A DNA stretch of 64,000 bases, taken from Heterodontus francisci (taxonomy: Eukaryota). Each line of letters starts with the position of its first letter. The stretch's first letter is position 1. The stretch lies in contig NC_090384.1 of assembly GCF_036365525.1 (NCBI RefSeq), forward strand, positions 71,261,715 through 71,325,714. The letters are read 5' to 3'. A model generated the notes under the pieces. That model was not told the DNA's origin, ran no database searches, and saw nothing but the letters and a program-made list of their open reading frames with translations. This document shows, piece after piece, positions 2,726-41,606 of this stretch. The position numbers and the translations under genes were made by a program.

Positions 2726-4352
2726 TTATAATTAAATAAAAGGATTGGATTATGAAGCCATTTTAAAAATTATTTCCTTAAATATATTTTCTAACTCATT
2801 AGACCTGCTGAGTATCTCCAGCATTTTCTGTTGGTATTTCTATTGTAAGATTGACTGTAATTGTGACCTTTATGATGTGTGTCTTCAGTCAGCCCCAGTT
2901 ATAATCTCCCACTGCTCACTTCCATTATCTAATGTATCCCTTACGTTGGGTAAAATCATGGTATAATTGGGATAGTGAACATTTAGGGCAATAAACTTTT
3001 CAAATTATTGAAGTAGTTAATGGACTGCACCTTGGGATTTCTCTATAAATTTGCATTCCACAGAAACAGATATTAAATTACACCTCTGAGGTGTTATAAT
3101 AGTATAACACAGAAGAGACTGTCTATCCAGTTCAATGGAATGTTTTCATGAAGTAATTTACATATAAACAGGTTACTCTGTGACCTCAAGAGGGGGTGTG
3201 TTTGTTATCATATATATATAAAAATGATCAAGTCAGTGATACGAAAAGTCAGGAACACAATTCTTATCTTGCTGTGAGACATTACTAGACTAGAGGTCTG
3301 TGTGGAGTTGCTGTCTATTCTGGATGTGTGTTCGATTATGAGTGAGTAGATTGTTTTTGTATATTGATTCTAGTAGAGGAATGTAACAAACTTTTAAATT
3401 GAAGAAGTTGCAAAGCAAATGCTGACTAGGCTCTTAGACGTGAAGCTAAACAGTGTGAGAGAATTGCACAGAAAAGAAATTCCTTCCTTTCCAAAGGTAC
3501 CATCAGAATTTGGTTTGCTCATGATTCCTTGTTTGCTTTTTTAGCCAGCAAATTAACTCATTCAAAATAAGTGGATAAAAGCATGTATTAAAACAATGTA
3601 GAAAATAATGCCATTGAACAAATTATAGTCTAAAAATTGGATTGCATCAGGCTACTGGTGCAGAGTGGGCGCAGTGAATGATCCCAATTTGAAATGGGTA
3701 GAGCTGAGACACACGCAATATTGGGCCTCATTTCAGCCAACTGCTGGGCTCTCTTCGGAAGCTCGCTGGTGAAGAGGATTTCAATTTCCAGGTTGGGAGG
3801 GGTGGGGGCAGCGACCGGGAGGTAGGGGGCAATTGGGAGAGGGAGGCGATCAGGAGAGAGAAGGGATGATTGGGATGGGGAAGAGATTGGGGTGGGGGGG
3901 TTGGATGATGAAGAGAGATTGGGAAATGATTGGAAGAGCGAGGGGGTGAAATCACCAGATCAACCTTGAAAATATTTGTATATTTCACTATTATTTTAAA
4001 ACAGGCTTGAACTGATTTATCTTAATAAGTTATCCCACTAAAATAGTGGACAGTGGAATACTGTGCAAATGGGTTAAGCATTGTCTGCCGCCATTGCCTA
4101 CAATCGTTTCTGGCTTTAATATCTCTTCAGTAAAGAAAATCTATTTGGGGTACATAAATTAATCTGTTTAACTACATTTTGCAGCATCATGTTAGAATAT
4201 TTTGGCTACTACAGCTATTCAACAGACCAAACTCGTTTCATCCCTTTGACCTCACCATTTCTTTATGGGCATTTGGAACTCTCCTGCCAAGAGAACCATG
4301 GAAGTAAGATCAATCTAGTCTTTTTTCATATTTAGATAGTAATCAGGTTCAG

Positions 4353-5145: not shown

Positions 5146-5379
5146 TTTCTGATGTATCCTGGACCACAGGTGTTCCTGAGCAGTGGAGCAATTTGCAGGT
5201 TTGGGAATGGCTACAGTTCTGCTGTGATCAGTAAAAACTAGATGCAAACTCCATTCCCTTCGCTGAGTTCAATATTAATGGCAGTCAGCTTTGCAGCATG
5301 AGTCAGCAGCAGTTTATCAGCATAGCTGGGCATTATGGAGAGATCCTTCACAAGATTCTGCAGCAGATAAAAGACAGAG
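5146..5379 (+). CDS. ELF5: ELF5-like exon, Pointed/SAM domain (234 nt, phase 1/1, internal TAA)
   Basis: ttgcttcAG|...AGA G|GTTAG; translates [76 protein letters not shown], against the recalled ELF5 motif [15 protein letters not shown]...FNISGLQLCSM. Confidence 0.9.
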
Positions 5380-19456: not shown

Positions 19457-19740
19457 TATTTTTAGATACAGCACTGAAACAGGCCCGTCAGCCCACTGAG
19501 TCTGTGCCGACCAACCAACCACCCATATTCCCTACCACCTACCTACACTAGGGGCAATTTACAACAGCCAATTTACCTATCACCTGCAAGTCTTTGGCTG
19601 TGGGAGGAAACCGGAGCACCCGGCAAAAACCCACACGGTCACGTAGAACTTGCAAACTCCGCACAGGCAGTACCTAGAATCAAACCTGGGTCCCTGGAGC
19701 TGTGAGGTTGTGGTGCTAACCACTGCGCCACTGTGCCGCA
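19457..19740 (-). mobile_element. HE1-like tRNA-derived SINE
   Basis: Reverse complement of the 29188 copy (gcggcacagtggcgcagtggttagcacc head). Confidence 0.88.
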
Positions 19741-20399
19741 TAGAATCATGAATATCCAGATACCATAGAAGTACCTGTGGTCTATGAGTCTGCTTGGAAT
19801 AGAAAAAAAAAGATAGGACACAGTAATGAAATTCAGGGTAAAACAGGCTTTTCAATCATGTTTCTTTTTTTCTCATCCTTTATGTCATGGTTTCACTTGT
19901 AATAATTTTTTATAAATTGTAAATTTCATTTGTGCACGTCGGCCTGTTACTTCTACTATTTCTATGTATATCATCACACTATCAGAATGCTTCCAGTACA
20001 TGAATTCTGCAGTTAATGAATCTTGAGGGAATCTGACTGATTGTGGGTGTTAGGGTGTGGTGGATGTCAGGGGGTGTGAATGCTGAAGCTGCTGTACTTT
20101 GTATCCCTAAGTGTATATCTGTGGCTATTTCATCTGGTATAAAATGTGCACAAGTCTGTATTTCACACAGATAATACATGAGGTATGCTGTGAAATACAG
20201 AGGTTTCAAATGCAGAACCAGCAGAGAATATAGGCTGAATTTGCATAGTTGGTCATCTGAGTGAGCTGAAGTGTGAAGAGGCAATTCTACAAGTGCGCTG
20301 TTCAGTACGGTTGCTGCTAGATCAGGTTGTGTTGTGACATTTGAAAGAAATGGAGGAGCAGGTAGGACAATGAAGTAATGACACTAACAGAGAAATAAA

Positions 20400-21111
20400 G
20401 GCCTGAATTTTACACCCCCCAAACGAGCAGGCTGTTGGCAGGTGGAGGCGGGTGTAAAATGGAGTGGGAAGCTGGGAGTGCCCTTCCTGACCCCTTCCCG
20501 CCCCCATTGCAAATTTACGGGGGGCGGTGGAGGCAAGAAATGGCCCACTGCCCCAGGCCAATCAGGGCCATTAAGTGCCACTGAAGGGCCTTCACCCCCC
20601 CCCTCACCCCCCGCCGCGGGTATTTTACACTTGGCTGGTGGGTGGCTGAGGTCTCTAAAAAAGCCTGCCCGGTGAAACCAGATGGCCTTCTTGAGAGCTG
20701 AGGGGGCCCTCCTGATTGGGCACTGTATGCCCCACAGAGGGCTGCCATCAACGCACAACACTCCCCCTAACCGCTCCCCCTTGCCTCGCCAGGGCCTGAC
20801 CAATTTCCCCGGCGAGGCTCTAAAAACTCATCTTCATTCCAAGGCCATCCTTCATCTTCGTTCTGATGGCTGGGTGCAGTCCCAGCAGTGGCCACCACTC
20901 CCGGTGGTGCTGCTGGGACTAAGAGCTGCCGGACGATTGATTGGCCGGCTGCTCCAATAGGCAGGACTTCCTGCCTCAAGGAGGTGGAAGTCTTGCCCAA
21001 GACTAATTAAGGGCTTGGGAAGTGTAAAATACGGTCTGGATCCCCAGACCCGGTGGAAGCGGGCTCACCACTGACTTTTCGGCCGCTCCCACTAACAAAA
21101 AATTTCCAGCC
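20400..21111. mobile_element. PIF/Harbinger-type MITE
   Basis: Termini GGCCTGAATTTTAC / AAAATTTCCAGCC; interior is the reverse complement of parts of 1890-2632. Confidence 0.8.
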
Positions 21112-21409
21112 AATGACTGCCAAAGGGTGATTGGAGAGAGAGAAGGACAAGGAGGGAGTAGTGTGCAAGTATGCCAGTGGCACATACATTGCTGGGTGGT
21201 CCCACACTTATCATTGATGAATCTGTATGTTGGAGTCATGCTGATGTAAGGAAATGGTTAATTCTCATCTATCACCTTTTACTTGCTAAGTGAATTTCTA
21301 CTAGAAGGCTGGAAAAGTCAGTTTTGTTTACCCGACAGAGACTTTAGCTTATAAGAGTTTGGCTGCAAACTTTCTTTGTCTGAGCCTCATTGGTATCTCA
21401 GCTGTCCTC

Positions 21410-22790
21410 CTGGGAATTATTTTCTTGGTTGGATTTGTCCTGCTTTTTGTGCACAGGACATACCTGGGAAATTTTCCACATTGCCGGGTAGATGCCAGTG
21501 TTGTAGCTGTACTTAAACAGTTTGACTACGGGCGCGGCTAGTTCTGGAGCACATGCCTTCAGTACTACTGCCTTTGCAGTGTCCAGTGCCTTCAGCCATT
21601 TGTTGATATCTCATGGAGTGAATAGGATTGGCTGAAGACTGGCATCTGTGATGCTGGGGACTTCAGGAGGAGGCCGAAATGGATCATCCAGTCGGCACTT
21701 ATGGTTGAAGATGGATGCAAATGCTTCAGCCTTATCTTTTGCACTGATGTTCTGGGCTCCCCCATTATTGAGGGTGGGGATATTTGTGGAGCCTCCTCCT
21801 CCTGTCAGTTGTTTAATTGTCCACCACCATTCACGACTGGATGTGGCAGGGCTGCAGATCTTAGATCTGATCCGGTGGTGTGGGATCGCTTAGCCCTATC
21901 TATCACATGCTGCTTCTGCTGTTTGATATGCAAGTAGTCTTGGGTCGTAGCTTCACTGGGCTGACACCTCATTTTGAGGTATGCCTGGTGCTGCTCCTGG
22001 CATGCCCTCCCACACTCTTCATCGAATGAGGTTTGGCCCCCAGTTTGATGGTAATGGTAGAGTGGGGGATATGCCAGGCCATGAGGTTACAGATTGTAGT
22101 TGAATACAATTCTGCTGCTACAGATGGCCCACAGCACCTCATGAATGCTCAGAGATGCAGTGGTTTTTGTCGAGGTTCATCCCAAGCAGCTCTGTAACAC
22201 AGGAGTCTGTGCTCTACGGGCTGTTCCCAGGGACGCACACCGAGACAAACATCAACTGCTGCTGGAGGACTATTAAATCGGTGAAAGACGCCCTTTGGTC
22301 TGCCCGAAACTTGCTGGTCTTCCAGCGCAAAGAGTTGTCCACCACCGAATGTTGCAGGCTGGCACAATCCAAGGTCCAGGACTATGTGCTGAGGGACGCA
22401 ATAAAGCTTGGGGCAGCCGCAGCAAAGGCTCAATGGGGAAAGACCACAGTGTAAGGTCCCCCCACCAAGCTGAACTGAGGGGCTGGATCCATGGGAAACC
22501 CCTCGAACTGTATCGGGAAAATTTTGTGTGCTGTAAATGTAAAAATGTATATGGCATGACAATGAAATGGAAGGGTTGTGAGGCAACTCATGATTGTATT
22601 GAAGGAAACTGATCATCTTTGCACTGTTTGTATTTTTTGACTTGATGCTGTTTTAAACTGTTTGGAAATGTAATTTTTACAGATTTTTATGAATAAAGTA
22701 TATTTTGGAAATAAAAAAAAAATGAATGCTCAGTTTTGAATTGCTAGATCTGTTCAAAATCTATCCCTTCCTAACAGTACTGTGAGTGTG
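21410..22790 (-). mobile_element. Second non-LTR (APE-RT) family fragment hosting a Tx1 insertion
   Basis: Collinear with 59545-60272 and 50700-51340 (NDGGAQ.ISAKDKAEAFA.IF motif). Confidence 0.8.
22153..22721 (+). mobile_element. Tx1/L1-clade LINE 3' end
   Basis: ORF2 C-terminus SVLYGLFPGTH...VKDALWSARNLLVF; AATAAA plus poly(A); 12-bp TSD ATGAATGCTCAG (22141-22152 and 22722-22733). Confidence 0.85.
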
Positions 22791-23126
22791 CCTACACCCC
22801 AAGGACTGCAGCAGTTGAAGAAGGCAGCTCACCACCACCTTCTCATGGGCAATTAGGGATGGGCAACCAATGCTGGCCTGGCCAGCGACGTCCACATCCC
22901 ACAAATGAATAAAAAGAAACGTGCAGAAGTTAGATCAGTCAAAAGAACTGCTATATTACTGAATTTGTATTGTTTTATTGCTGCAGGATATGCCACAATG
23001 CAGTTCCCTTATCTGTGTAATTTATTTGAACAGTAATTCCAAGCCAGGAGTTGTGTTTTGTGGCTTCATATGTAATATTTGCAATTGGATCTGCAAATCA
23101 AGATTTGTTTTAACATTATATATAAG

Positions 23127-23231
23127 ATGACATCAATCTGGATGGTGAACAACCAGTCTCCTTGCTGAACACTCATCCGTTGAAGCGATGGGAGAATCCA
23201 TCAGTAAAGCCACATATTTTGAATATAATGA
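23127..23231 (+). CDS. Tentative ELF5 linker exon (105 nt, phase 1/1)
   Basis: Open frame DINLDGEQPVSLLNTHPLKRWENPSVKPHILNIM between AG and GTTAG, in the correct phase to join the ETS exon; weak acceptor and no recognisable homology. Confidence 0.2.
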
Positions 23232-23477
23232 GTTAGAGGTTATTGCCAATCTAATCACATTTAAATAGTAAAATATTCCACAAAACTCAAACTGAGATTG
23301 GTTCATGTAGGTCGTTAGCTTCAGAGCACAGTGGAACTAACATTTAAGCATGAAACTGACTTTGCTGTTGGCTAACCTGTTACCTAAATTGGATGTAGAA
23401 GAGAGAATATTTGTATTTTCCAAGACATAATAAGATTTCCTGATAAACAAGATTCTTATTTCTGCTTTCTCCCGAAG

Positions 23478-23673
23478 GTTTTCAAAGTCAGTATCTTTGG
23501 GAATTTGTTCGTGATATTCTGCTGTCTCCTGAAGAAAGCAATGGCGTTTTGAAGTGGGAAGACAGAAATGAAGGAATTTTCAAAGTTGTAAAGTCTGATT
23601 CTCTGGCAAAACTGTGGGGTCAAAGAAAAAATAATGAACGTATGACCTATCAGAAACTTAGCAGAGCACTGAG
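23478..23673 (+). CDS. ELF5: ELF5-like exon, ETS domain N-terminal part (196 nt)
   Basis: ctttctcccgaAG|...CTG AG|GTAAC; [65 protein letters not shown], open frame. Confidence 0.93.
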
Positions 23674-23903
23674 GTAACAATGTGCTTCTCCAACAAGTAG
23701 CAAAGCATGTTTAGTTGCACTTCAAAACAAAAAAGAACAGAAATTGTCTCTTTGGTTTGGTTGCTAGTATTCTTGCCTCAGAGTCAGAACGTTGTGAGTA
23801 GGTGTATTTTAATTTTGATCAGGAGGGTTTTTTGAGGACAATTTCTGTTCGCATTGTTAGAGATTTTCCTGCACAAATCACACCTGAATTAACTTTTAAA
23901 AAT

Positions 23904-24167
23904 CTTTCTTTGGTCTCCTTATCTTGAGATACAATGGGTAAGTGCCTGGAGGTGTTCAGTGGTGTGTGGAGCAGTGCCTGGAGTGGCTATAAAGGCCAAT
24001 TCTAGAGTGACAGGCACTTCCACAGGTGCTGCAGAAAAATTTGTTTGTCGGGGCTGTTACGCAGTTGGCTCTCCCCTTGCGCCTCTGTCTTTTTTCCTGC
24101 CAACTGCTAAGTCTCTTCGACTCGCCACTCTTTAGCTCCGCTTTTATGGCTGCCCGCCAGCTCTGGC
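23904..24167 (-). mobile_element. RTE LINE 3' end in the last ELF5 intron
   Basis: Reverse complement of about 4530-4795; TSD TTTAAAAAT (23895-23903 and 24168-24176). Confidence 0.88.
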
Positions 24168-24969: not shown

Positions 24970-25054
24970 ACATTATTACAAAACTGGGATTCTGGAACCA
25001 GTGGATGGACGGTTAATGTACATGTTTGGAAAGACTACGCATGGCTGGAGATAA
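24970..25054 (+). CDS. ELF5: ELF5-like terminal coding exon, ETS domain C-terminal part
   Basis: ttttgcttttcAG|A CAT...; (R)[27 protein letters not shown], in phase with the previous exon; AATAAA at 25246 and 25275 followed by a GU-rich tract. Confidence 0.92.
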
Positions 25055-25316
25055 AAGCCTTTATTTACCAGTCAACTATATCCTTGATTGATTGAAGATT
25101 ATGGACTGTGTTAGCAAGAGCTGGCACCATCTTTAGACGATTCCCAGTCAGCGGTCAGCTCAACTAAGCAATGTGATTATTTTTCTATTCAAAACTAAAT
25201 CTTAGCCTTCAGCTTGTTTGATTTTTTTGGTGAAAAATGCAGCACAATAAAGCCAAAATATTCACCAAACTTGTAATAAATGGGACTTCAACTGTGTTGT
25301 TTTATGTTGCAATTAA

Positions 25317-26111
25317 CACGTGTGGGTTGCTTGCCAGCTCCCGGTGTGGGGGTCCCTTGTTCAAAGGCACTTACTGTCTGATTGAGAGACCCAGCATCGG
25401 GAAGGAGGGGGGCCCACTGAGAGCTACCTCACTGCCCTTACTGCCGACACCCCCACACACCCTCCCCCGCGACACCCAACCCTCAAAATCCCTCCCGCCA
25501 TGATTCACCTGTGTCCCGGGTCCCTCGAAGATCCTAGGCCTCGGGTGGGTGCATTACAGGCAGCAGTCACCGCCTCTGCAGTGGCACTGCTCAGTGAAAA
25601 AGCTGCTGGCCTCTGATTGACTGGCAGCTCTCAGAAGGCGGGCCGTCTGTCGCCGGGGTCCTTAATCTCAGGAAAGGCCTGCCGCTGCCCACTTAAGTGC
25701 CTAATTGGCACGTAATCCGGTGGACCTTCCTCAGTGGAGGCAATATGGGGCTCTTGCCGGCTCTTCAGCAGGTGGCCGAGACCCCCTTTGCCGACATGAT
25801 TGGTGTTAATTAAAGACTAACACAATTTTAAAGGCTCTTACAGTTGGTCCAGTGAAATTTTTTCTCTCAGAGGGTCGTGAGTCTTTGGAATTCTCTTCCT
25901 CAAAAGGTGGTGGAAGCCAAGTCTTTGAATATTTTTAAGGCAGAGGTAGATAGATTCTTGATAAGCAAGGGGGTGGAAGGTTATCGGGGGTAGGTGGAAA
26001 TGTGGAATAATCAGTTCAGCCATGAACTTATTGAATGACGGAGCAGGCTCGAAGGGCCAAGTGGCCTACTCCTGCTTCTAATTCGTATGTATGTATGTAC
26101 ATAAAATCCCC
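25317..26111. mobile_element. Truncated Harbinger-type MITE containing a CR1 3' end (about 25850-26095)
   Basis: Shared MITE motif agctgctggcctctgattgactggcagctc; right end ATAAAATCCCC; CR1 tail ending in TATG repeats. Confidence 0.65.
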
Positions 26112-26563
26112 TCCTTGTGAATGTTCTATGGAGTCTATACACAGGAGTTCAAAATCTGTAATCTATATCCATCTATAGCTCTTGGTTTCCCTGTATATGT
26201 AGCTATTTATGTATATATGAATCTATATTACATAGAATATACATCATAGAAACAGGCCATTCAGCCCAACACTTGGTGTTTATGCTCCACTGAAGCCTCC
26301 CCTAATCCTTCCTCATCTAACTAAATTAGCGTAACCCTCTATTCCTTTCTCCCTCATATGCTTATCTAGCTTCCCATTAAATGCATCTACGCTATTCAAC
26401 TCAACAACACCCTGTGGCAGTCAGTTCCACACTCTCACCACTCTCTGGATAACGAAGTTTCTTCCGAATTCCCTATTTGATTTCTTGGTGACTATCTTAT
26501 ATTGATGGCCTCTGGCTTTGCTCTTCCCTACAAGTAGAAGCACCGTCTCTGTGTCTACTCTAT

Positions 26564-27252
26564 GGGCCGGATTTTATTCCAGTGACGGGGATCCTGACAG
26601 TGGGCCGGAAGGCAGGGGCCCCATTGCTATTCCATGGTGGGCAGCCAATTAACTGCTCGCAGTCGGGGACACCATCACTTTAAGGGATGAACTTCTGCCT
26701 ACAAAAGCTGCCAGCCAATCGGAAGGCTGGCAGCTCTGCATTACTGGCAGCACCACCGGGAGCAGTGGCCAGGAGAAGGAGAAGAACCGAGACAGGTAAG
26801 AGGGGTTGGGGTCGACGGGGCGAGTGAGGCAGGCCCCGGCAATAGGGTGAGGGTAGGTAAGGGTGGGAGGGGTCTTCCTGGGAGGCAGGGCGGCCATTGC
26901 TGCTGGAGGTGGGGGCCCTCAAGGGGCCCTGGATTTCCCCCAAAGCTGGGACCACCTCAACCCCGCTAGGAGACTGCCAGGCTTTACCAGGTGGCATCTC
27001 CCCATGACGGTGGGCTCCTCCATCTTCAATAAAATCGAAACGCAGGTGGAAAGGTGGCCTTAAGTGGCCATTAATTGGCCAATTAAAGGCCTCAATTGGC
27101 CTGGGGCGGGATGGCCATCTTTGGTTTTCCCCGTCCCAGACAATATAGCAGGGGGCCTGGGCAACGTCAGGAATGGTGCCTCCTGCCATTTTGTTTGCCC
27201 CCCCACCCCCCACCTCTGTGCTTGTCTCCAAGGGCAGAATAAAATCCTGCCC
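26564..27252. mobile_element. PIF/Harbinger-type MITE inside a minus-strand CR1 fragment (about 26230-27600)
   Basis: TIRs GGGCCGGATTTTATT / AATAAAATCCTGCCC; 3-bp TSD TAT on both sides. Confidence 0.88.
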
Positions 27253-27615
27253 TATGAAAACCTTCCATAATTTTAAAGATCTCTATCAGGTGACACCTTA
27301 ACCTTTGCTTTTCAAGAGAGGAGACCCAGCTGTTCATCCTTTCTTGCAGTTCTGGTATCATCCATTTAAATCTTTTTGTACCCTCTCGTGAGCCTCTATA
27401 ACCTTTTGATAATATGGTGACCAGAACTGTACACATGACTCCAAGTGTGCTCTAACCTAAGGTTCAATACAAGTTTAGCATAACTCCTCTTCAATTCTAT
27501 CCTTCTAGAAATAATCCCTAGTTCTTGGTTTTCTCTTTTTAAGGCCTTAGTAACCTGCACTGCTACTTTCAGTAACTTGTGTATTTGTACTCTCAGATCA
27601 TAGCCATCTATATAT

Positions 27616-28527
27616 TGTTAGGACCAGGTGAGAAAGAGGTCTAGGGTTCCCTCTCAGCCTTCACCCGGTCTTACTGTAACAGGGTTTAATTTTAAACAAA
27701 CCATGTTTTTAGCTCCCCCTTGGTGAATCCTTGTTCACCGCTTTCCAAATATAAGGCAAAGAAACCAGCACAAACAGGCTTTCTTAGGTTTAAAGAAGAA
27801 AAGTTGAAACTTATTAAACTTAAACTTAATATCTGATTTGGTTAACGCCTATGGATACATGATGTGCCCCACACTAGCATGCATACGTGATACACACATG
27901 CAAATAGAGACAGAAAAGACCAGAAGAAAAATAAAGTGGAAAAGCTTCAGGCAATATCTGAAGAGTTGTTGTAATGGTTCTTCAAGCTCACTGTAGGGTC
28001 CTTGATTGTAGGTAGATCTTGCTTTTTGTTGGGGCCCAATAGTCTTCTTAAACCTTGTTCGCTGTAGGAGACTTTTCTTTCTTGGGGTTCATGTGTCTTC
28101 AGTGGATTCAGAGTCTTGTGAGAAAGAGATCGCAGCAGACAGGAGAGAGATCTTCTCAGTCCAGGAGCAAACAGCTTTCTGCTCAAAACTGTTTGTACAA
28201 ATTCAAAAGACTCAAGTTGCCCCGCAGGTTAATCATGTGACTAGCTGGTTTGACCATGTTCCTTTGTGTATTTGGCCATCTTAGCAGTCAACCTGGAATG
28301 CGAGCTCCCCCACCTTCAACGTCTGGTGATCAAAAGTCCATTGTGGGTTGAATGTCAGGGAATGGCTGCTTTGTCCTTCGAAACACTGTCTGTTAATATG
28401 CAAATGTCTTTTCTAGCCACAGCTGATATGTTTAACAAGTCTTCTTCACTCCAGTAACAGTTTAAGATCAAAGTTCATGACAAAGTTAATGTGTCTCATT
28501 CGTGGCAGGTGGGGGCCTAACATGACA
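27616..28527 (-). mobile_element. Solo LTR (Gypsy-like)
   Basis: TGTTAGG...CATGACA termini with a perfect 4-bp TSD ATAT; inverted homolog of 12962-13872. Confidence 0.9.
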
Positions 28528-28669
28528 ATATCCATTTATAGCTAAGTATATATCTATAAAATCTGACACACCTGAAAAGTGATGGACATGTTTTATTTTT
28601 GAATTTCTCCTGATGTGGGCATTATTGACAAGATCATCACTCATTGCCCTTCCCTAATTTCCCTTGGGA

Positions 28670-31600
28670 AGTGCAAGAACAATAGGGCAGTAATAGTCGG
28701 GGATTTTCATTACCCCAATATTAACTGATTTAGTGCGAAAGGAATTGAGGGAGCAGAATTCTTGAGGTGCATTTAGGAGAACTTTTTTGCCCAATATGTG
28801 GCAAGTCCAACAAGAGAGGTGTAGTTTTAGACTTAGTTTTAGGAAATGAAAATGGGCAGGTGAAGGGGTGGCGGTGGGAGAGAATTTTGGTGGTAGTGAT
28901 TATAATTCGGTCAATTTTAACATAATTATGGAAAAGGACAGAGATAGAACAGGAGTTAGATTCCTTAATTGGGGCAAGGCCAATTTTACTAAACTGAGGA
29001 GTGATTTAGCGAAAGTGGACTGGAAACAGCTACTTGAAGGTAAATTAGTGTCAGAACAGTGGAAGGCATTCAAAGGAGAGATTCAAGGGGTTCAGGGTTA
29101 ACATGTTCCCACAAAGAAAAATGGTGAGGCAGCCAAATCTATAACCCCATCGATGTCAAGGAGCCTACATGGTAAGATAAGGCAGATAGGGCGGCACAGT
29201 GGCGCAGTGGTTAGCACCGCAGCCTCACAGCTCCAGGGACCCGGGTTCAATTCTGGGTACTGCCTGTGCGGAGTTTGCAAGTTCTCCCTGTGACCGCGTG
29301 GGTTTTCGTCGGGTGCTCCGGTTTCCTCCCACCGCCAAAGACTTGGTGATAGGTAAATTAGCCATTGTAAATTGCCCCTAGTGTAGGTAGGTGGTAGGGA
29401 ATATGGGATTACTGTAGGGTTAGTATAAATGGGTGGTTCTTGGTTAGCACAGACTCGGTGGGCCAAAGGGCCTGTTTCAGTGCTTATCTCTAAATTAAAT
29501 AAATAAAATAAAAGGAAAGCATATGTCTGACACCAAGAACTCAATACTACAGAAAGCCAAGAGGAGTATAGAAAGTGGAGGGGTGAAATCAAAAAGGAAA
29601 TTAGGAAAGCAAGAGAGAGGGCATGAAAGAATATTGGCAAGCAAAATCAAGGCGAACCCAAAGATGTTTTATCAATACATTAAGTGTAAGAGGATAACTA
29701 AGGAGAGAGTACGGCCCATAAAAGACCAAAAAGGTAACCTATGTATAGGAGTGGACGATATTGGTATGGTTCTTAATGAATACTTTGCACCTGTCTTCAC
29801 AAAAGAGGGGGACGATGCAGATATTGTAGTTAAGGACGAAAAATGTGAAATATTGGATGTGATAAACATAGGAGAGAGGAATTATTAATAGGAATAGCAT
29901 CTTTGAAAGTTGATAAATCACTAGGGCCAGATGAAGTGTATCCTAGGCTGTTAAAAGAAGCAAGAGAGGAAATAGAAGAGGGTCTGACCATCATTTTCCT
30001 GTCCTCACTGGATACAGGTGTGGTGCCGGAGGATTGGAGAATTGCTAACGTTGTACCTCTGTTTAAAAAGGGAGCAAAGGGTAGAACGAATAATTACAGC
30101 CAGTCAGTCTAACCTCAGTAGTGGGCAAATTCTTGGAATCTATTCTGAGAGACAGGATAAACTGGCACTTAGAAAATCACAGGTTAATCAAGGATAGTCA
30201 GCATGGATTTGTTAAAGGAAGATCTTGTTTGACTAACTTGATCGAATTTTTTGAAGAAGTAACAAGGAAGATAGATAAGGGTAATGTAGTTGATGTGGTC
30301 TACATGGATCTTAGCAAGCCTTTTGACAAGGTTCCACATGGCAGACTAGTTAAAAAAATAAAGTCCCATGGGATCCAGGGAAATGTAGCAAGGTGTATAC
30401 AAAATTGGCTCAGTGGCAGGAAACAAAGGATAATTGTCGATGGCTGTTTTAGCAACTGGAGGGCTGTTACCAGTAGAGTTCCGTAGGGCTCAGTACTGGG
30501 TCCCCTGCTTTTTGTGGTGTATATTAATGATTTGGACATAAATGTAGGGGGCATGATCAAGAAGTTTGCGGACGACACAAAGATTGGCCGTGTGGTAGAT
30601 AACAAGGAGGATAGCTGTAGGCTGCAGGAAGTATTGATGGCCTGGTCAGATGGGCAGAAAAGTGGCAAATGGATTTCAACTTAGAGAAGTGTGAGATGAT
30701 GCATTTGGGGAGGTCAAACAAGGCAGAGAAATACACGATTAATGGGAAAATACTGAAAAGTGTAGAGGAAGTAAGGGAACTTGGAGTGAATGTCGATACG
30801 ATGGTTAAGAAGGCATATGAAATCCTTTCCTTTATTAACTGAGGTATAGAATACAAGAGCAGGGAGGTTATGCTGGAACAGTATAACTCATTGGTTAGGC
30901 CACAACTTGAGTACTGTGTGCAGTTCTGGTCACCTCATTACAGAAAGGATGTAATTGCACTAGAGAGGGTACAGAGGAGATTTATGAGGATGTTGCCAGG
31001 ACTGGAAAAATGCAGCTTTGAGGGAAGATTGGATAGGCTGGAGTTGTTCTCCTTGGAACAGAGAAGGCTGAGGGGAGATCTGATTGAAATGTACAAAATT
31101 TTGAGGGGCCTGGATAGAGTGGAGGTGAAGGGTCTATTCACCTTAGCAAAGAAGTCTGTGATGAGGGGGCATAGATTTAAAGTGATTGGTAGAAAAATTA
31201 GAGGGGAGATGAGGAATAACTTTTTCACCCATCGGGTGGTGATGGCCCGGAACTCACTGCCTGAAAGGGTAGTTGAGGCAGAAACCCTCAACTCATTCCA
31301 AAGGAGTCTGGATATGCACCTCAAGTGCTGTAATCTGCAGGGCTACGGATCAAATGCTGGAAGGAGGGATTAGAATAGGTGGATCGTTTTTCAGCCAGCA
31401 CAGACATGATGGGCCAAGTGGCCTCTTTCAGTGCCTTACACTTTCTATGATTCTAAGGTATGGTAGGCCCTTTTCTTGAACTACTTGAATTACAGAAAGG
31501 ACATATTTGCTCTGGAGAGAGTGCAGAGGAGATTTACAAGAATGTTGCCAGGGCTTGAAAGTTGCAGCTATGAGGAAAGATTGGATCGGCTAGTGCTGTT

Positions 31601-32010
31601 TTCCTTAGAACAGAGGAGGCTGAGGGGTGACTTAATTGAGGTATACAAAATTATGAGAGGCCTAGATAGAGGAGACAGGAAGGACCTGTTACACCTAGTG
31701 GAAAGGTCAGTTACCAGGGGGCACAGATTTAAGGTGATTGGTAGAAGGATTAGAGGGAACATGAGGAAAAACCTTTTCACCCAGAGGGTGGTGGGTGTCT
31801 GAAATTCACTGCCAGGTATGGTGGTGGAGGCAGAAACCCTTAATTCTTTTAAAAGCTACGTGGACCTGCACCTGAAATGCTGGAACCGGCTATGGACCAG
31901 GTGCTGGAAGGTGGGATTAGATTGGGTGGCTAGTTTTTTGGCCGCACGGATATGATGGGCTGAATGGCCTCCTTCTGTGCTGTAATTTTTCTATGGTTCT
32001 ATGGTTCTAC
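28670..32010 (+). mobile_element. CR1/HER1 LINE ORF2 (APE-RT, decayed) followed by a second CR1 3' end (about 31485-32010)
   Basis: KVDKSLGPDEVYPRLLKE, SQHGFVKGRSCLTNLIEFFEEVT, KFADDTK and LVRPQLEYCVQFWSPH motifs with stops and frameshifts; TTCTATGG-repeat tail. Confidence 0.92.
29188..29510 (+). mobile_element. HE1-like tRNA-derived SINE inserted in CR1
   Basis: A-box-like tggcgcagtggtt, B-box-like ggttcaattc, central ggtgctccggtttcctccc, CR1-like 3' tail and TAAA-repeat end. Confidence 0.9.
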
Positions 32011-32620
32011 TGCAGTCCATGCACTGTTAGGTAGGAAGTTCCAGGATTTTGACACAGTGACAATGAAAGAATGCCATTGTATGTCCAAGTCAGGATGATG
32101 TGTGACTTGTAGGAGAACTTGGAGGTGATGATGTTCCCATGCTCCTGCTCCCCATACTCTTTTAGTTGGTGGAGGCCATGAATTTAGGAGGGGCTGCTAA
32201 AGAAGCCTTGGCAACTTGCCTCTGTGCATCTTATAGACAGGACAGATTGCAGCTACGATGCACTAGTGGCAGAGATTTAAGGCAGTGATGGTTGCTAATC
32301 AAACAGACATAGTGGTATTGTGTGAGATGCTCAGGAAACAGTATGAAGTACACATCCACTCATGGCTGATATTACAGGCAGATTAGGAATATGAACGAAT
32401 ATTTGGGTGGTGACACAGTACACAGACACTGTGTTCACTGAGGCATAGGAGGCAGGTTGTATCTGTGATCCAGGTCACACACACTGAAAGTTTTCTTTGC
32501 CATATGGGTCACCATGAGTAAAGGCCTCATTCATCTTCACTACTGACCCTCATCCAATAAAACACCCAAGGGATGGATACAGAGCAACAAAGGGAAAGTC
32601 CTATGAGAAGGGTGGGTTGT

Positions 32621-33669
32621 GGGGCCAATTTTCGCTGGCTCCTTTAGGAGACAGAGAGCCTCTGAGGTGACCAATATGGGGTCTTGAGCTGAAATGCCAG
32701 TTCACTTGCATTTAGCACAAGATGCAATCTTTGTAAAGGAGTTGAAGGGCATGCAAAGAACGGTCGCATAGAGGTTTATTAAGGGGCTGATTGCCACTTA
32801 AATTATCTGCTAGCACTCATTAAAGTGGCTGCATGCCATTTTGGTGGGTAGCGCTTGACACAATGCCCTCTCCTAACAGAGGCTAGCTGAACAGGAGTAA
32901 ACAAATCGAGTGTTACTTAAAGGCATATTCACCTTTTACGGTTTACCTACCGCTGTAGGTTTGAAGAGGACTTTTGAAACACATTGGGAGACTTCTTTTG
33001 GCAGTTTGTCGAGACTTCACCAAAACAATGTTCACATTTATTCTGGAAATTCTCTGAGGACTTCACCTAAAAATAGTAAATGCTGTGCTTCTCTACCTTA
33101 TTGGACACCTTATAAGAGCCACCAGGAGATAGGGAGTGCTTGGTTATGAACATCTTGCTGGGGGTCGCCCCAGGGAGGATGAATGGGAGGAGGCCATGAG
33201 ACCAGACAAAGCTGCATCAGCTACTGCAGGAGAGAGGAACAGGAGGGTGAGGAAGGTGAGCTGGACTCCTTCACCTCATCCCTCCCCACCGCCCCCCCCC
33301 CCCCCCCCCCCCCCACCCCACCCCGGCCCACCAGCACAGGTAAACAATATCCCTCTTCCTCTGGACCTCCTCCAGCAGGACCATGCCCAAGAACCTATTT
33401 GCCCTCTCCCTCAACCCCTGAGTCATCCTGAAACCTGCCGCTATGTGTAAACCAGCTCAGTGGAAGCGAGTGTGTGCAGTCCACATATACTGCTGTGCTT
33501 GAGTACTAAATTTGCAGGTGTCTGTTTTAGCACCTCCAGGCAAGTTCAAATTATGGTCATCAGCAATTAGGAACAAAGCTGTGTGCTAAATCACACTTTC
33601 AAACAGCCATGTCTTAATAGCACAGCACCCATTTTGTGCCAGTTTTCACCCTTTCACCAAAATAACCCC
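32621..33669. mobile_element. Internally deleted Harbinger-like element with a long poly-C tract
   Basis: Termini GGGGCCAATTTT / AAAATAACCCC; interior resembles the region upstream of the transposase in the 54885 element; C-run at about 33292-33313. Confidence 0.5.
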
Positions 33670-33721
33670 TAGTGTTTTCTGTAGGAAGACTTGAAAGGGA
33701 AGGAAAGGAAATACGTTTTAG

Positions 33722-34068
33722 TTTTTTTTTAGAGATACAGCACTGAAACAGGCCCTTCGGCCCACCGAGTCTGTGCCGACCAACAACCACCCATTTATAC
33801 TAATCCTACACTAATTCCATATTCCTACCACATCCCCAACTGTCCCTATATTTCCCTGCCACCTACCTACACTAGGGGCAATTTATAATGGCCAATTTAC
33901 CTATCAACCTGCAAGTCGTTGGCATGTGGGAGGAAACCGGAGCACCCGGAGGAAACCCACGCAGACACAGGGAGAACTTGCAAACTCCGCACAGGCAGTA
34001 CCCAGAATTGAACCCGGGTCGCTGGAGCTGTGAGGCTGCGGTGCTAACCACTGCGCCACTGTGCCACC
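33722..34068 (-). mobile_element. HE1-like tRNA-derived SINE
   Basis: Close reverse complement of the 29188 copy, with a poly(T) end on the + strand. Confidence 0.9.
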
Positions 34069-35580
34069 CAAAACGTTAAAATGGGAAAAAGAAATGTTAT
34101 AGTAAATATCTAAGTCAAATGGTCATTTTTTTTATTTTAAAAAAAGGAAGGAGAAAAGCCATTCAAACATTGTCGGTCATCCTGAATATAAGACAATTTT
34201 CAGGGTTTTCATTCTTCCCAAGATCTAGGCACTCCCTCAGTTTCTAGTGAATTATTCAATAGTGGCTACATTCACTTGGTAGTAGTTTAATCCATGATGG
34301 AGAGGTTGCGTAGCTTGTGCTTTCCTCAGGTCACGATCCTGGTCCCTGGTTCTTGGCTTCTGCACATAGAATTTCCCCACCTCCTTCTTCTCCAATCCCT
34401 GCATAATTTATCATGATTCCCTCCTCCCCATCACAATCCTTTTCCAATGAAAATAAATTGAGCTCACCAAGTCTCTCGGCATTTACATCAATATAAGTGC
34501 TGGAAGCAGGTCCTGTTACCACACTGAATAATGCCAAAGCTATTGATGCTAAAGTTATTTTGTCACTAGGGAGAACAGACAGTAAGCAAAGAGAGCAGAC
34601 ATCTCCATTCACAATACATACAGTCAAAACATGTTTTTGGTATTCTTTTCAACAGTAGTGCATTTGAAATATTATCATAAGCTGAGAAGAAACCAATGAT
34701 TTCAGATATTTCGATTTGTGTCAGTTTGTGTATATTTGTTACTGGGGAAATTTATTGTACATCAGTAATCTTTGCAGATTAACAGATATTAGCACTGTCT
34801 AATAGTTATAATGATTTTTTCAATAAAGAGTAGTGCAAGTTTACAAATTGGGTTTACAGATATACAGCCAAAGAGATGTTAAGAGTTTTGCAGTGCATTC
34901 ACATTTCCCAACTGTAGCATTGATGCAAGGGGCAAAACTACTTTGCATCAATGCTAAACTTGGAATGTAAATCAGGAGTGAAGAATTGAACAGACTCTGA
35001 AGTGAATTGAGTGAGTCTCCCTCATCCAGAGCCTGCTTTACTCCAGTGTCAGCTTGGGACCTGGCTCCAAATACAGGCTGCATTATTGCTGTAACTGTAA
35101 TGTTGGTGAAAAGTGAAATGCACCAACAAAGATTTGTTAAAAATATTTAAAACGCAAGTAATTCAGTTAAATTTTTGTATTCTGAGAATCCTAGAGAAGT
35201 AACTTCTGGCTTTCTGAAGGTCATGTTTACTGCAGTGATGTGTGGGTTTAGTCCCCTTGAATAGTCCGTGGAAGGACTGGCTAAATGCATTAAATGTCCT
35301 TTTCTCATTTCTTTCATATATTTTTTAGGAACCTACATCTTATCACATGCATGTTCTGCGCAGCCTTTGTCCAGAAAATTGAAAAAAACCACTAATTTAA
35401 AAAGCATATTTATTACGAATGCACAGCTAGATAAAGACAGGCAGTAAATACAGAAAGAAAATCGTTTGAAATTTTTAATCTTTCTTCAATCAGCAGAAGT
35501 ATTCATCATTTAAATGGCATTTACTGTAAATGCCCCAATATATTGAGAAACAAGTTGCAGAGAAACATTGTGAAGCTGAA

Positions 35581-35600
35581 CCAATCCACAAGATGGCAGC
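35581..35600 (+). promoter_or_regulatory. CCAAT box abutting a CTCF-like (also YY1-like) motif
   Basis: CCAAT 35581-35585 directly followed by CCACAAGATGGCAGC 35586-35600, close to the CTCF core consensus. Confidence 0.45.
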
Positions 35601-35914
35601 ATCTTGCACGTCTACAACCAAAGGAGGTAGAGTACTGCAGTAAATTAGGGTAAAGTTTGCTGGTGCTGGAGAGGGAATACATTAAGAAATAACAATGGGA
35701 AATAAATAATAGAATCATAAAATTCTAACAATAAAGAAAAGATAACTATTTAGATTGTACATATAATACAAGAAAGTAATGAAAAGTAGAAAGCAAAATA
35801 AACAACTGATATAAGATTAAAAGAAAGTAAAAATCAAGACTGCAAAAACTATATAAAGCATTACTTAATGTAATAATGGAGAAAATGATACACAAAGTAA
35901 CATTCACGGTTTAG

Positions 35915-35990
35915 GAGTGTGGTTAAGTGTGACCGTTGGTTTCGGAGTGACATGATAAAGAGGCAGGCCACCACATCAGCTGCCACAGAA
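35915..35990 (+). promoter_or_regulatory. Putative RAG1 proximal promoter (RUNX, Myb, GATA, RUNX, E-box)
   Basis: TGTGGTT 35918-35924, CCGTTG (Myb, reverse) 35933-35938, TGATAAA 35953-35959, ACCACA 35970-35975 and CAGCTG 35977-35982, all within about 65 bp. Confidence 0.6.
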
Positions 35991-36090
35991 GATACTAGAA
36001 AAGGTAGAGAGTTCCTGTTATTTCAGAGTTTACTTCATGGTTTGGAACAGATGGGAGCCTTCTCTGAAAAACACATTCTGTGAGAGAAAG
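35990..36090 (+). other. RAG1: Predicted non-coding exon 1 of RAG1 (5' end approximate); intron 36091-38452
   Basis: Donor AAG|GTAACG at 36090/36091 just downstream of a lymphoid TF-motif cluster; acceptor ttactttttatatttctgttAG|GTACC at 38452/38453, 19 nt before the ATG. Matches the vertebrate RAG1 layout of a short non-coding exon 1 plus one large coding exon. Confidence 0.6.
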
Positions 36091-36368
36091 GTAACGTAGA
36101 GATTGACATTGCTATCAATCTTTGTACAACGACTGCTTTAACTTAATGTAGAGTTATTTTAGAAGAATTGTAACCAATGTTCTTGTAGGTTTATCTATCC
36201 TAAGTTGTATAGCTAAATGTTACTGTGGAATATATACCTTGTATTTATTAATGGGATAGGTATAGTATAGGCTAGTATGTAAGTCGATAAGGAGTTGAGC
36301 AAGAAACATCACATGGCCAGTTTAATTGATTTTATATTTAGATGCTTTTTTATTGAAGTATTTTAAAG

Positions 36369-36435
36369 CTTCACAAACCACTGACCACCTCCAGGCGCGT
36401 ATCCATTGTCTCTCGAGATAAGGAGGCCCAAAAGA
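36369..36435 (+). mobile_element. 67-bp RTE 3' end in predicted RAG1 intron 1
   Basis: Identical by eye to about 4725-4791; 9-bp TSD ATTTTAAAG (36360-36368 and 36436-36444). Confidence 0.9.
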
Positions 36436-38083
36436 ATTTTAAAGTAAGGAATATGCATCAAAAAGACTACTTTGCTCAGTTTTACAACTGATTGCTGCTT
36501 TCCTAACTGTTGTACTGGACATTGGAGCATATTGCAGTTTCATTACATTTTACATTAGAAGGAGTTCTAAGAAAAATGAGGCGAGATGGTGGGAAACACC
36601 CCATGAAAGGTGCAAAAATGGATCATTTTTATGAAATGAAGGGGACTAATTTCTTTAAAATTTACCACAGATGACTAATTTTTGAGAAAGTAGGCAGAGT
36701 TATTCTTCCATTCAGTTTGTTGCCTGCTTCTACCAAAACTCATTATACTATGATTAAGCCTCACTTTAATATTAACATTTGTAAAATATATTTCACACAA
36801 ATGTCTTACAAGCTTCTGATATGTTTATTTCTGGTGTATCGAGTTTTCAAAACGTCTGAACCCATTGCCATTAATCTCCATGAAAGTGGCTTGATTAGGT
36901 TGTGAAGGTTTTGAATGAGTGGTTATTAAAAAAAGAAATATTTTAATGAAAGACTAGTTTCTGTTACCAGTTATTCTCTGACATGGTAGCACTGGAGTTT
37001 GGAAATTGCCAAATATGTCGTATTGTACCAATTTCAAAACTGATCACTGCAGACCTCTGACATGAAATGTGTTCTTTGGTTAAGTATGTAAAATAATATG
37101 AAAAACATTGTAAAAATTTAAGCTGTGTTGTACTGGTTTTGTAGGCCAGGTGGTGCAACTGTATCATTTTGTAGCCTTTCTCTTTCAGTAAGCTGGTTGA
37201 AATCTAGGCTAGGATCTGTGCAGATGTGACGTATTACTGATGGCTGTTATTAATCTCAAGCAATATTTCTTTCAGTCTAATCCTCTGTCTACTTTCAAGA
37301 GATATAAATTCACAGTATGAAATTGATACATTGCAGATGATTCAAAAATACTGTGTGGCTGTAGGCAACAGATAGAGATCAAAATATTACTCCTGAGGAT
37401 GATATAAATAACTGAATGTGTGTTAATCTCATTACACAAAATGAGATTTTGTTTGTTTCATCATGAAAAGATCTAAGAGGTAATGAGTGAATCTTATGAT
37501 TTTGATCATTCTTACAGATTTGAGTCACTGTAACCTAAGGGAAAATATTTCACCACAGTCCGACAATTGCAGTTGTTATTAATTTTGTGACAATTTAAGA
37601 TTTATTTCCACAAATCTTTGGGTTTCTGTCTTTTGTTAAATACTCAAGTTAGCAGTAGCCCCTTTTGTGCAATTTATCAGTTATATTGTCTGCAGATACC
37701 ATTGATAAAAGACTATAGGCCATTAGCAAGCAGCAGAGATGCCTGTTCCGTTTGTGTAATGTAATTGGTTTGCAGTCAATTGTGTTTTCTTTTTCGAACC
37801 TAAGGAAATTATCTTAAGTTGAAGGGATAAACGAGCAAAGTGGGCAAATCTGATTGGAACTGTTTAGCTATGTGGAGGTAAATACAGACTGCTTGGGTTT
37901 GTTATCTTGTAACTTTTATATATTTCTATGTATTTATAAACATGCAAAAGTGAGCTTTGGCATATGAAAGCTGCAGTGAGAATCTTAAATGTACAAAATA
38001 AAGCTCTTGTACTAACTGGCAATTTTTTTCTATATTTTTTCTTCCTGAGCTAAATTATACATTTTTCATCATCAAAGATCTTA

Positions 38084-38242
38084 GGTGTAACTTTAACCTA
38101 ACTTGCCCGACAGGTAAAGAGGATGGAGTCGATTGTCCATCTTATACCCTGCCCGAATTTACTCTTCATTTAATGTAAAATGATCAGCTTACCCAACCTG
38201 TCAGATTCCTACCAGGTGGGTTAGGTTAACATTATGTGCCCT
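38084..38242. mobile_element. Small MITE in predicted RAG1 intron 1
   Basis: Imperfect TIRs gtaactttaacctaacttgcc / ggtgggttaggttaacattat. Confidence 0.55.
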
Positions 38243-38471
38243 TACACTGGATGTGATGGTCGTTTATTGATTTTACTGAATCAGAGTCCAATTTTAGGAC
38301 AGCTCTAACATTGTAAAATATAACTATCTGAATAATGAAAAATTAGAATGCAGGAGTTGTAAATTAGCATTGAATATGAAGCTGTCTTGCTCCTGAAGCT
38401 GTTGAACTGTAATCCTATTTTAATCAATAATTACTTTTTATATTTCTGTTAGGTACCGATGTTTAATTGAA

Positions 38472-41400
38472 ATGGAGATGCCTCTGCAAATGATACCTGA
38501 AGATTTCAGACATTTAGAAACCATGTCTTTCATAAATGAACAGAAGGAAACCACGGTTTCAATGGAAAAGCTTTGTGATACAGAGACTGTTGTGCCAGTT
38601 CATGGCTTTTTGTGGCAATCCTCATCTTCTCAAAGCAAACCAGTGGGAACTATGCCATTGGAAACATTGCCTTTGGACAAGAAAACTTTGGAAGATAAGT
38701 CTCTGGAACAGATGCCTTTAGATGTTAACCCATCAAAAAACAAGTTCTGCGACTTTAGACAAACGGAAGCAAAATCTTTGGAAGAACATATATTCCGATT
38801 ACGAAAGCTCTGTCGCATTTGTGGAGCTTCCTTTAATACCAACAGTTATGACATGAAATACCCGGTTAGTGGTCCTGTTGATGATGTCACACAAGAGGTT
38901 CTCAGGAAAATGGGATACGGAGACTGTTTTTGGCCAGAACTCATTCGTAACACATTTAGGTTAGATGTCAAGACAGATACAGAAGCCAGATATCCCACCC
39001 ATTTCTGCTACAACTGCTGGCGGATTATCATACAGACAATTAACAACACAACTAATGAAGATGCATTCTTCCCTATCAGCACAATTGTTGAGTGGAAGCC
39101 ACATTCCAATCTTTGTAGCATTTGCAACTTTTCAAGTGGGACTCGCAAACGAAAAGGTCTCAAACGAAGTCCACCAGTCACAAAGAAGCCCAAAGTAACA
39201 GTTGATGCTCCAATCAGACCGAGAGTCATCAAAAGAAAAGATCAACAAAATAGTATTTTATTGGCTAAAAAGATTGTCAACTGCAAGAAGATCCACCTAA
39301 ATTCAAAACTCCTTGTACTTGATTATCCAAATAACTTTATCCAGTCAGTGTCATGTCAGGTTTGTGAGCATTTACTTGCTGACCCTGTGCAATCACCATG
39401 CAAGCACCTTTTCTGCAGAACATGTATTCTCAAATGTACTGCAGTTCTGGGCAAGTATTGTCCAGTTTGTAGGTTTCCTTGTGGTCCTGCAGAGTTCATA
39501 AGCCCAGTTAAGTCATTCATAAATGTTCTCAATTCACTAGTTCTAAAATGTCCAGTGACAGACTGTGAAAAGGAGGTGAAACTAAGTGAGTTTTCTAACC
39601 ATGCCCAAAATCACAAAGAAACAAGAATGAAATATGCTTACTCACCAGTAAACAAGGGTGGCCGTCCACGGCAGCATTTGCTCTCTTTAACCCGAAGAGC
39701 TCAAAAACATCGTCTGCGAGATCTCAAACTTCAGGTAAAGGCTTTTGCAGACAAAGAAGAAGGTGGTGATGTGAAGTCTGTATGCCTTACCCTGTTTTTG
39801 CTAGCACTGAGAGCTGAAAATGAACACAGGCAAGCAGATGAGTTGGAAGCTGTAATGCAGGGTCGAGGATCAGAATTGAAGCCAGCAGTCTGTCTTGCCA
39901 TTAGAATTAATACATTTCTGAGTTGCAGTCAGTATCATAAAATGTATAGGACAGTCAAAGCAACTACTGGGAAGCAGATCTTCCAGCCGTTGCATGCACT
40001 CCGAAATGCAGAAAAAACATTGCTGCCAGGTTATTGTTCATTTGAATGGCAGCCTCCTCTAGCAAATGTTTCCACAAACACTGAAGTGGGAATAATAGAT
40101 GGGCTGAGTGGTTGGGCACAATGTATTGATGATTACCCAGTGGAAACAATTTCAAGACGATTCAGGTATGATGTGGCACTTGCTTCAACTGTGAAGGAGC
40201 TTGAGGACGATATTTTGGAAGGCTTAAAATGTCAAAAAATTGATGAGTTTGTGAGTGGACCATTTACTGTTGTAATCAAGGAATCTTGTGATGGAATGGG
40301 GGATGTCAGTGAAAAACATGGATGTGGTCCAGCAGTTCCAGAAAAGGCAGTGAGGTATTCCTTTACAATCATGAGTATAAGTGTGATGAATGAAAACAAT
40401 GAAAAAGTGAAAGTGTTTGAAGAGTTAAAACCAAATTCTGAGTTGTGCTGCAGACCACTTTGCCTGATGTTAGCAGATGAATCTGACCATGAAACGTTGA
40501 CAGCAATACTGGGCCCAGTAATCGCTGAAAGAGAAGCCATGAAGACTAGCGATTTAATCCTTGAAATTGGAAATTTGCACAGATCTTTCCAATTTATCTT
40601 TAGAGGCACAGGGTATGATGAGAAACTTGTACGTGAAGTTGAAGGCCTTGAAGCCTCGGGCTCTATTTATGTATGCACATTATGTGATGCCACTCGAAGT
40701 GAGGCTTCACGGAATTTGGTCCTTCATTCCATAACTAGGAGCCATGGAGAGAACTTAGAACGCTATGAAATTTGGCGTTCAAATCCATATCATGAGACAG
40801 CTGAAGAGTTACGTGATAGAGTGAAGGGGGTTTCAGCAAAACCATTTATTGAAACTCAGCCCTCTATAGATGCCTTGCATTGCGATATTGGAAATGCAAC
40901 AGAATTCTACAGACTTTTCCAGGATGAGATTGGGGAGATGCACAAGAATCCTCATTCATCTAAGGAGGAAAGAAAAAGGTGGCAAGCAATGCTCGATAAT
41001 CACTTAAGAAAAAAGATGAATCTGAAACCTGTCATGAGGTTGAATGGAAACTTTGCAAGAAAACTGATGACCAAAGAGACTGTAGAAGCTGTGTGTGAAT
41101 TGATTCCATCTGAAGAAAGGCGAGAAATTCTCAGAGAGCTAATGCACCTTTATCTTCTTATGAAACCAGTGTGGCGTACCACATTTCCAGTTAGAGAATG
41201 CCCAGATCTTCTTTGTCAGTACAGCTTTAATTCCCAGAGATTTGCAGAGCTGCTTCATACAAAGTTCAAGCACAGATATGAAGGGAAGATCACCAACTAC
41301 CTACATAAGACTTTGGCTCACGTTCCTGAGATCATTGAAAGAGATGGCTCTATAGGCGCATGGGCAAGCGAAGGGAATGAATCAGGCAACAAACTATTTC

Positions 41401-41606
41401 GGCGTTTCAGGAAAATGAATGCAAGGCAGTCCAAATGTTATGAATTGGAAGATATTTTGAAACATCACTGGCTGTACACTTCAAAATATTTACAGAGGTT
41501 CATGGATGCACACAATGCATTGAAATATGCAAAGTGTGCTTCTGTACAACCTGAAGTAATCAGCCAAGATAATACAATACCTGAAGATGATTCCATTGAT
41601 AGTTAG
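38472..41606 (+). CDS. RAG1: V(D)J recombination-activating protein 1, intronless CDS, 1044 aa
   Basis: Uninterrupted ORF with CRICG...FCYNC N-terminal Zn region, C3HC4 RING ([24 protein letters not shown]...CPVC), C2H2 finger, nonamer-binding [11 protein letters not shown], and catalytic motifs [16 protein letters not shown] and [11 protein letters not shown]. Confidence 0.99.

Follow-up and report, generated by a model that had tools for sequence, protein, structure and literature searches.

An ELF5 gene as the 5' neighbour of RAG1 in the shark Heterodontus francisci

RAG1 is the enzyme that rearranges antibody genes. Adaptive immunity was founded when a single transposon landed, an event that the RAG locus preserves; mammals commonly serve as the model for the 5' side of this locus. 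Here we describe this side in Heterodontus francisci, in a stretch of 64,000 nucleotides (NCBI RefSeq assembly GCF_036365525.1, contig NC_090384.1, positions 71,261,715 to 71,325,714 of the forward strand; hereafter the window, by whose positions all features are given). The gene directly upstream of RAG1 in the window belongs to the ETS family and is identified below as ELF5, an epithelial transcription factor.

ELF5, RAG1 and the interval between them

The ETS gene lies on the plus strand and has four coding exons with canonical AG/GT boundaries; the window begins 4.2 kb upstream of its ATG. Its features are as follows.

4189..4303, plus strand: ELF5 first coding exon, ATG at 4189, phase 1 donor (tblastn with four chondrichthyan orthologues)
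5146..5379, plus strand: ELF5 Pointed (PNT/SAM) exon (Pfam SAM_PNT, E=4.2e-22; 85% identity to Heptranchias)
5232..5234, plus strand: in-frame TAA at ELF5 codon 68 in the PNT exon (Tyr or His in orthologues)
23478..23673, plus strand: ELF5 first ETS exon (Pfam Ets, E=2.7e-23; spliced in RNA-like contigs)
24970..25054, plus strand: ELF5 last coding exon with a normal stop TAA, ending at 25054
25246..25251, plus strand: likely ELF5 polyadenylation signal AATAAA (from the sequence)

Pfam detected both an N-terminal PNT and a C-terminal ETS domain. The best matches are four chondrichthyan proteins, mostly labelled 'ETS homologous factor' by NCBI, from Heptranchias (XP_067849623), Pristiophorus, Pristis (XP_051885370) and Callorhinchus (XP_007885831). 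In a phylogenetic tree the window gene nests with these four (support 100/99), on the ELF5 side as against EHF (100/100). A second tree with 19 added relatives, built by a quick method and with an outgroup that we infer to be ELF3, also placed it in the ELF5 clade (Shimodaira–Hasegawa-like approximate likelihood ratio test, 99). By these trees the window gene is an ELF5 orthologue and not EHF or an ELF3-like gene, and the chondrichthyan 'EHF' beside RAG1, as named by NCBI, is ELF5. Exons and phases are like those of chondrichthyan ELF5, with identities of 78–88% in the first ETS exon and 67–85% in the PNT exon; the first coding exon is 66–72% identical to the two shark orthologues.

No linker exon was recognised between the PNT and ETS exons, the best scores (99 and 67) falling below opposite-strand nulls and a stricter scan giving 0 candidates. 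The missing linker was rejected as proof of a deletion, linker scores being just 17–32 between shark and ray or chimaera. The large ELF5 intron holds a fragment of a Harbinger-type DDE_Tnp_4 transposase (9716–10297, minus strand). Heptranchias ELF5 reads through the stop at which the window gene ends, and its extended C-terminus is still matched at 25052–25078.

From the end of the ELF5 stop at 25054, 11,036 bases lead to the donor at 36090 of a predicted first exon of RAG1, both genes being on the plus strand. The features of the interval and of RAG1 include transposable elements of the long interspersed (LINE), short interspersed (SINE) and long terminal repeat (LTR) types.

25601..34069, no strand: repeat-rich spacer (self-BLAST, RVT_1)
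27616..28527: LTR-like piece in the spacer (self-BLAST)
28681..32009: CR1-type LINE in the spacer (self-BLAST, RVT_1)
29189..29508 and 33716..34069: SINEs in the spacer (self-BLAST)
34070..36089, no strand: 2020-bp block unique in the window, upstream of RAG1 exon 1 (self-BLAST)
35586..35599, plus strand: CTCF-like site, a lead only (13 of 14 positions of a consensus)
35918..35982, plus strand: predicted RAG1 promoter, a cluster of RUNX, MYB, GATA, RUNX and E-box sites (post hoc motif search)
35983..36090, plus strand: predicted non-coding RAG1 exon 1, donor AAG/GTAACG at 36090 (predicted from the sequence)
38453..41606, plus strand: RAG1 coding exon, ATG at 38472, 1044 amino acids, intact (Pfam RAG1, 1256 bits)

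Within 25055–36089, 5239 of the 11,035 bases recur elsewhere in the window as LINE, SINE and LTR-like pieces, class names that are our reading of the sequence; three window-unique blocks of 546, 777 and 1706 bp stand besides the 2020-bp block. A six-frame Pfam search of 25054–36090 found no TRAF6 domain and RVT_1 as the sole family, and the same method detected the 65-amino-acid ETS exon and the PNT exon as a control. Likewise, none of the 22 open reading frames (ORFs) of at least 150 amino acids in the window holds a MATH or TRAF domain. Judged by Pfam rather than TBLASTN, TRAF6 is absent between ELF5 and RAG1. An earlier note on this DNA had placed an ELF5-like gene, not TRAF6, directly 5' of RAG1, about 11 kb before predicted exon 1 and on the same strand, across repeats and about 2 kb of unique sequence with no TRAF6-like exon; our results agree with it on each of these points. 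CTCF-like matches are not enriched in the window (2 against 0.93 expected). At 30937–32005 two LINE 3' ends, 77% alike, lie in tandem, and on the other side of RAG1 an inverted copy (49616–50133) is 89% like the second of them.

The RAG1 ORF (38472–41606, plus strand) occupies a single coding exon that encodes the RING, zinc finger and recombinase core. It is 87–90% identical to shark and 80–86% to batoid RAG1, and catalytic D, D and E motifs are visible in the translation at what we take to be their positions. A splice acceptor precedes the coding exon at 38452. The window has two such motif clusters; the one at 35918–35982 fits a lymphoid promoter and so supports the predicted exon 1. No RNA run was listed with sequence of 32000–38400, of which four DNA runs from one sample contain 84% of the words. 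The other RUNX/GATA/E-box/MYB cluster lies at about 41741–41850, 3' of the RAG1 stop. Within the coding exon the RAG1 ATG is preceded by a short ORF at 38459–38470, made up of an ATG, two codons and a stop, and the roughly 3.2 kb of mostly unique, AT-rich sequence at 41607–44800, with an AATAAA near 44795, is likely a long 3' untranslated region.

Premature stop and expression of ELF5

The ELF5 reading frame is not open over its full length, being interrupted by the TAA at codon 68; here the earlier note, which had taken the gene as ordinary, has to be corrected. The chondrichthyan orthologues are full-length, whereas the window gene combines this stop with linker exons that cannot be recognised and a last exon that has changed faster. 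Matching to DNA and RNA-like contigs covered 4100–24099, all four runs coming from one sample. Over the stop-bearing region a DNA contig (4972–5840) and an RNA-like contig (5220–5382) agree with 0 differences, and no second allele of the codon 68 TAA was seen in the one sample compared.

Transcription and splicing, the loss of which would mark a unitary pseudogene, are retained. Among the pieces listed, spliced ETS-exon contigs occur in two of the three RNA-like runs (X5 and X6). A 573-nucleotide contig from X6 (record 24) contains exactly 23478–23673 plus 92 nucleotides before and 285 after it, and a second contig, from X5, is spliced at the same acceptor (23478). If the 285 nucleotides are the last exon, they would end at 25254, near the AATAAA. 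With the matches extended maximally, the X5 partner exon ends in AG, which would fit the PNT exon, and the last base of the X6 partner is not G, which would fit the ATG exon (an in-frame skip) or a novel exon. No 92-nucleotide piece matching the ATG exon was found among the contig pieces listed.

In X6 the ETS-exon contig has a depth of 57 against 2.7 for the PNT-exon contig, a difference that fits decay of stop-bearing mRNA, contig depth being a weak measure of transcript abundance. An mRNA containing the PNT exon would meet the codon 68 stop and undergo degradation, and this exon is probably absent from the more abundant spliced form. Skipping it would here stay in frame, leading to a predicted ETS-only protein of 131 amino acids. 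In humans, the Pointed domain is absent from ELF5 isoforms 3 and 4, and isoform 3 behaved much like full length in the cell lines described (PMC4704400). Because PNT-less human isoforms are active, a working short form is possible in this shark; the human forms are minor and exist beside an intact gene, whereas the full-length form is impossible here. The last exon weighs against a working short form, with 6 private amino-acid changes in 27 columns. In a protein-level comparison its share of private changes (6/8) exceeds that of RAG1 (34/144; one-sided Fisher p=0.004, one of 6 regions tested). The changes include R to P and K to M in columns that are 95% invariant in 76 bony ELF5 sequences (88 entries minus twelve partial or odd ones). 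Taken together, ELF5 in this species is likely still transcribed but at an early stage of decay.

ELF5 and RAG1 in other cartilaginous fishes

Gene order in other species was judged by accession numbers, which follow position loosely: small gaps are suggestive but are not coordinates, and large gaps carry no meaning. In Heptranchias perlo, a hexanchiform shark, ELF5 (XP_067849623) and RAG1 (XP_067849624) are consecutive and on the same 76,075,720-bp contig. In the elephant shark, Callorhinchus milii, ELF5 (XP_007885831) is 4 numbers from a 'shark RAG2' (XP_007885835) that is given, together with RAG1 (XP_007886047), in a legend of bioRxiv 10.1101/100735. The gaps in 10 bony vertebrates were 16, 46, 259, 649, 991, 992, 1325, 1659, 4503 (627 in GenBank) and 31216, so that none of the ten controls was at or below 4; the smallest, 16, derives from Phrynocephalus locus tags and is about the gene number expected. 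These controls exclude Latimeria, whose records come from different releases, and Protopterus, whose two genes are on different contigs. With gaps of 1 and 4, the dozen genes that separate ELF5 from RAG1 in humans could be accommodated only if all had been numbered in another batch. We consider it very probable that the ELF5–RAG1 order is common to a chimaera and sharks, and ELF5 is likely to adjoin RAG1 chondrichthyan-wide.

The accession adjacency in these two species runs counter to the earlier note, which had proposed a local rearrangement in one lineage; an order common to chondrichthyans is a case that the note had itself raised conditionally. A change confined to this species or a small clade could still be entertained, given that only this window was read at sequence level and that accession numbering is batchy, but the contrast between the gaps of 1 and 4 and the bony-vertebrate controls renders it improbable. 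The same contrast bears on the assembly. About half of the interval is repeat, through which two loci might have been fused in error; one would not expect such an error to generate the very neighbour that two independent annotations show, the order in Heptranchias and the elephant shark thus argues against it, and the RAG1 protein is on a 111.7-Mb contig. We regard misassembly as extremely improbable.

A further alternative is that RAG1 has acquired a duplicated, decaying ELF5 copy as its neighbour; the true ELF5 would then be near EHF/CAT, and TRAF6 would lie immediately before the window. The premature stop, the lack of recognisable linker exons and the short reach of the window, a mere 4 kb, on the 5' side of the ATG exon would suit such a copy. 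By accession number, however, an intact orthologue adjoins RAG in Heptranchias and Callorhinchus, the matches listed contain one ELF5 locus per chondrichthyan, and the introns are kept, which speaks against a retrocopy; a duplicate is accordingly very improbable.

Most sharks and rays may lack ELF5. Of the 17 named elasmobranchs in which RAG1 was listed, three have an ELF5 protein and 14 yielded none (five carpet sharks, a catshark, three skates, four stingray relatives and an electric ray); this count covers annotated proteins in the best 120 of 426 matches (lengths 142–454) plus 9 matches of another search. Among 148 additional representatives, none was a further chondrichthyan-like ELF5 by best BLAST match. 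Coming from annotated proteins rather than genomes, these counts suggest repeated ELF5 loss in sharks and rays. A literature search that left subscription titles mostly uncovered returned no description of ELF5 or EHF beside RAG1, or of ELF5 loss, in cartilaginous fishes, and a paper on the Pax6 loci of the elephant shark (PMC3554528) contained none of six terms looked for in it.

Origin of the gene order and comparison with other RAG loci

We take the human strands to be plus for CAT and RAG1 and minus for ELF5 and TRAF6. The human gene list in PMC9408430 gives the order CAT, ELF5, EHF ... PRR5L, TRAF6, RAG1, RAG2, IFTAP, with 12 genes from ELF5 to TRAF6. Breaks between CAT and ELF5 and between TRAF6 and RAG1, followed by a flip, would yield ELF5 (plus) and then RAG1 (plus), as observed: ELF5 would be turned onto the RAG1 strand with its 3' end facing RAG1. 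A single inversion predicts EHF head-to-head upstream of ELF5, and TRAF6 beside CAT. RAG1 would retain its own proximal promoter (35918–36090) and its neighbour alone would have changed, an epithelial gene ending about 10.7 kb upstream replacing a broadly expressed one that faces away. We favour, as a reasonably probable account, one ELF5-to-TRAF6 inversion that parts the chondrichthyan from the mammalian order, with ELF5 decaying in this species.

The adjacency could also be chondrichthyan-wide and have arisen through several rearrangements, or a move of the RAG–IFTAP block, instead of one inversion. This would be in keeping with a labile 5' flank, the walleye rag locus reading furinb, accs, si:ch211-256a21.4, rag1, rag2 (PMC12684333 Table 2), and the positions of TRAF6 and CAT in the shark are predictions only. 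On the other hand, the strands are arranged as one inversion would leave them, and ELF5 and RAG1 share one chromosome in Polypterus, Erpetoichthys, Latimeria and tetrapods; we judge several rearrangements to be unlikely.

A number of points weigh against a single inversion, a shared chondrichthyan order and a decaying ELF5. The inversion is read from strand geometry, and the shark position of EHF, like those of CAT and TRAF6, is a prediction. Elephant-shark ELF5 and RAG1 are 216 apart by accession, and XP_007885835 is called 'shark' in the paper, its species being taken from the number series. In Pristis the two genes are on one 53,698,128-bp contig but 268 apart, which is uninformative. Continuity across 25–36 kb is taken from the assembly. 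The DNA run with the codon 68 TAA may be the assembly's own sample, the exon joined upstream of the ETS exon is one that we infer, the excess of changes in ELF5 falls short of significance over the whole protein (p=0.13), and apart from the stop the PNT exon is well preserved. Separately, a labile 5' flank weakens inference from that flank to the transposon landing site.

The chances that the ancestral order was of the shark or the mammalian type are near even, and polarity cannot be read from the accession gaps in Polypterus, Erpetoichthys, Latimeria and Protopterus. If the shark order is ancestral, the RAG transposon would have landed between the ELF5 3' end and the IFTAP/NWC promoter, and an inversion in bony vertebrates would later have brought in TRAF6 with its CTCF boundary. 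In lamprey and hagfish the empty site would then be an ESE-type ETS gene next to IFTAP; a chondrichthyan-wide ELF5 neighbour gives a concrete prediction for jawless fishes. The joint reading, in which the shark order is ancestral for gnathostomes and ELF5 has been lost repeatedly in sharks and rays, with loss ongoing here, is tentative and rather doubtful. The bearing on the ancestral RAG insertion site that the earlier note had seen is real, but it is weakened by the third neighbour in walleye, which shows that the 5' flank changed repeatedly. Gene-order changes of such size are common and this order is visible in public annotations; the significance rests on gene order and implies no functional consequence.

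On the 3' side, no RAG2 ORF was found among ORFs of at least 150 amino acids from the RAG1 stop to the window end (22.4 kb), and six-frame Pfam covered 41607–47400; RAG2 may lie beyond position 64000. The RAG1–RAG2 gap would then exceed 22 kb here, and 41607–64000 is packed with LINE pieces; in a walleye table the gene records are 1.5 kb apart (PMC12684333). A near full-length CR1-type LINE occupies 60360–64000 (minus strand; GDSL esterase ORF1, endonuclease and a 654-amino-acid reverse transcriptase frame), and 58000–59400 (minus strand) reads like a degenerate LTR-retrotransposon pol fragment.

The locus resembles the mammalian RAG locus (human 11p13-p12) in its intact, single-coding-exon RAG1 with a short non-coding exon upstream (predicted here), and the human one in having ELF5 on the same chromosome as RAG1. 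NWC/IFTAP, the 3' host gene of the RAG locus, is described as conserved (PMC3439442). The 5' sides differ: the mammalian neighbour is TRAF6, whereas this shark has ELF5 there, 11 kb away and in tandem. Rag1 is reported to be separated from Traf6 by a CTCF boundary in mouse (PMC8007930), whereas this shark has only a chance-level CTCF-like site; the boundary studied in mouse cannot be a universal arrangement, its context being different here. In walleye, a percid teleost, the 5' neighbour of rag1 is likewise not TRAF6, and the main text of the walleye paper makes no mention of traf6 or ehf (PMC12684333); the neighbours there are si:ch211-256a21.4, accs and furinb, whereas that of this shark is ELF5. 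Three lineages with three 5' neighbours indicate that the 5' flank of RAG1 is labile and has changed more than once.

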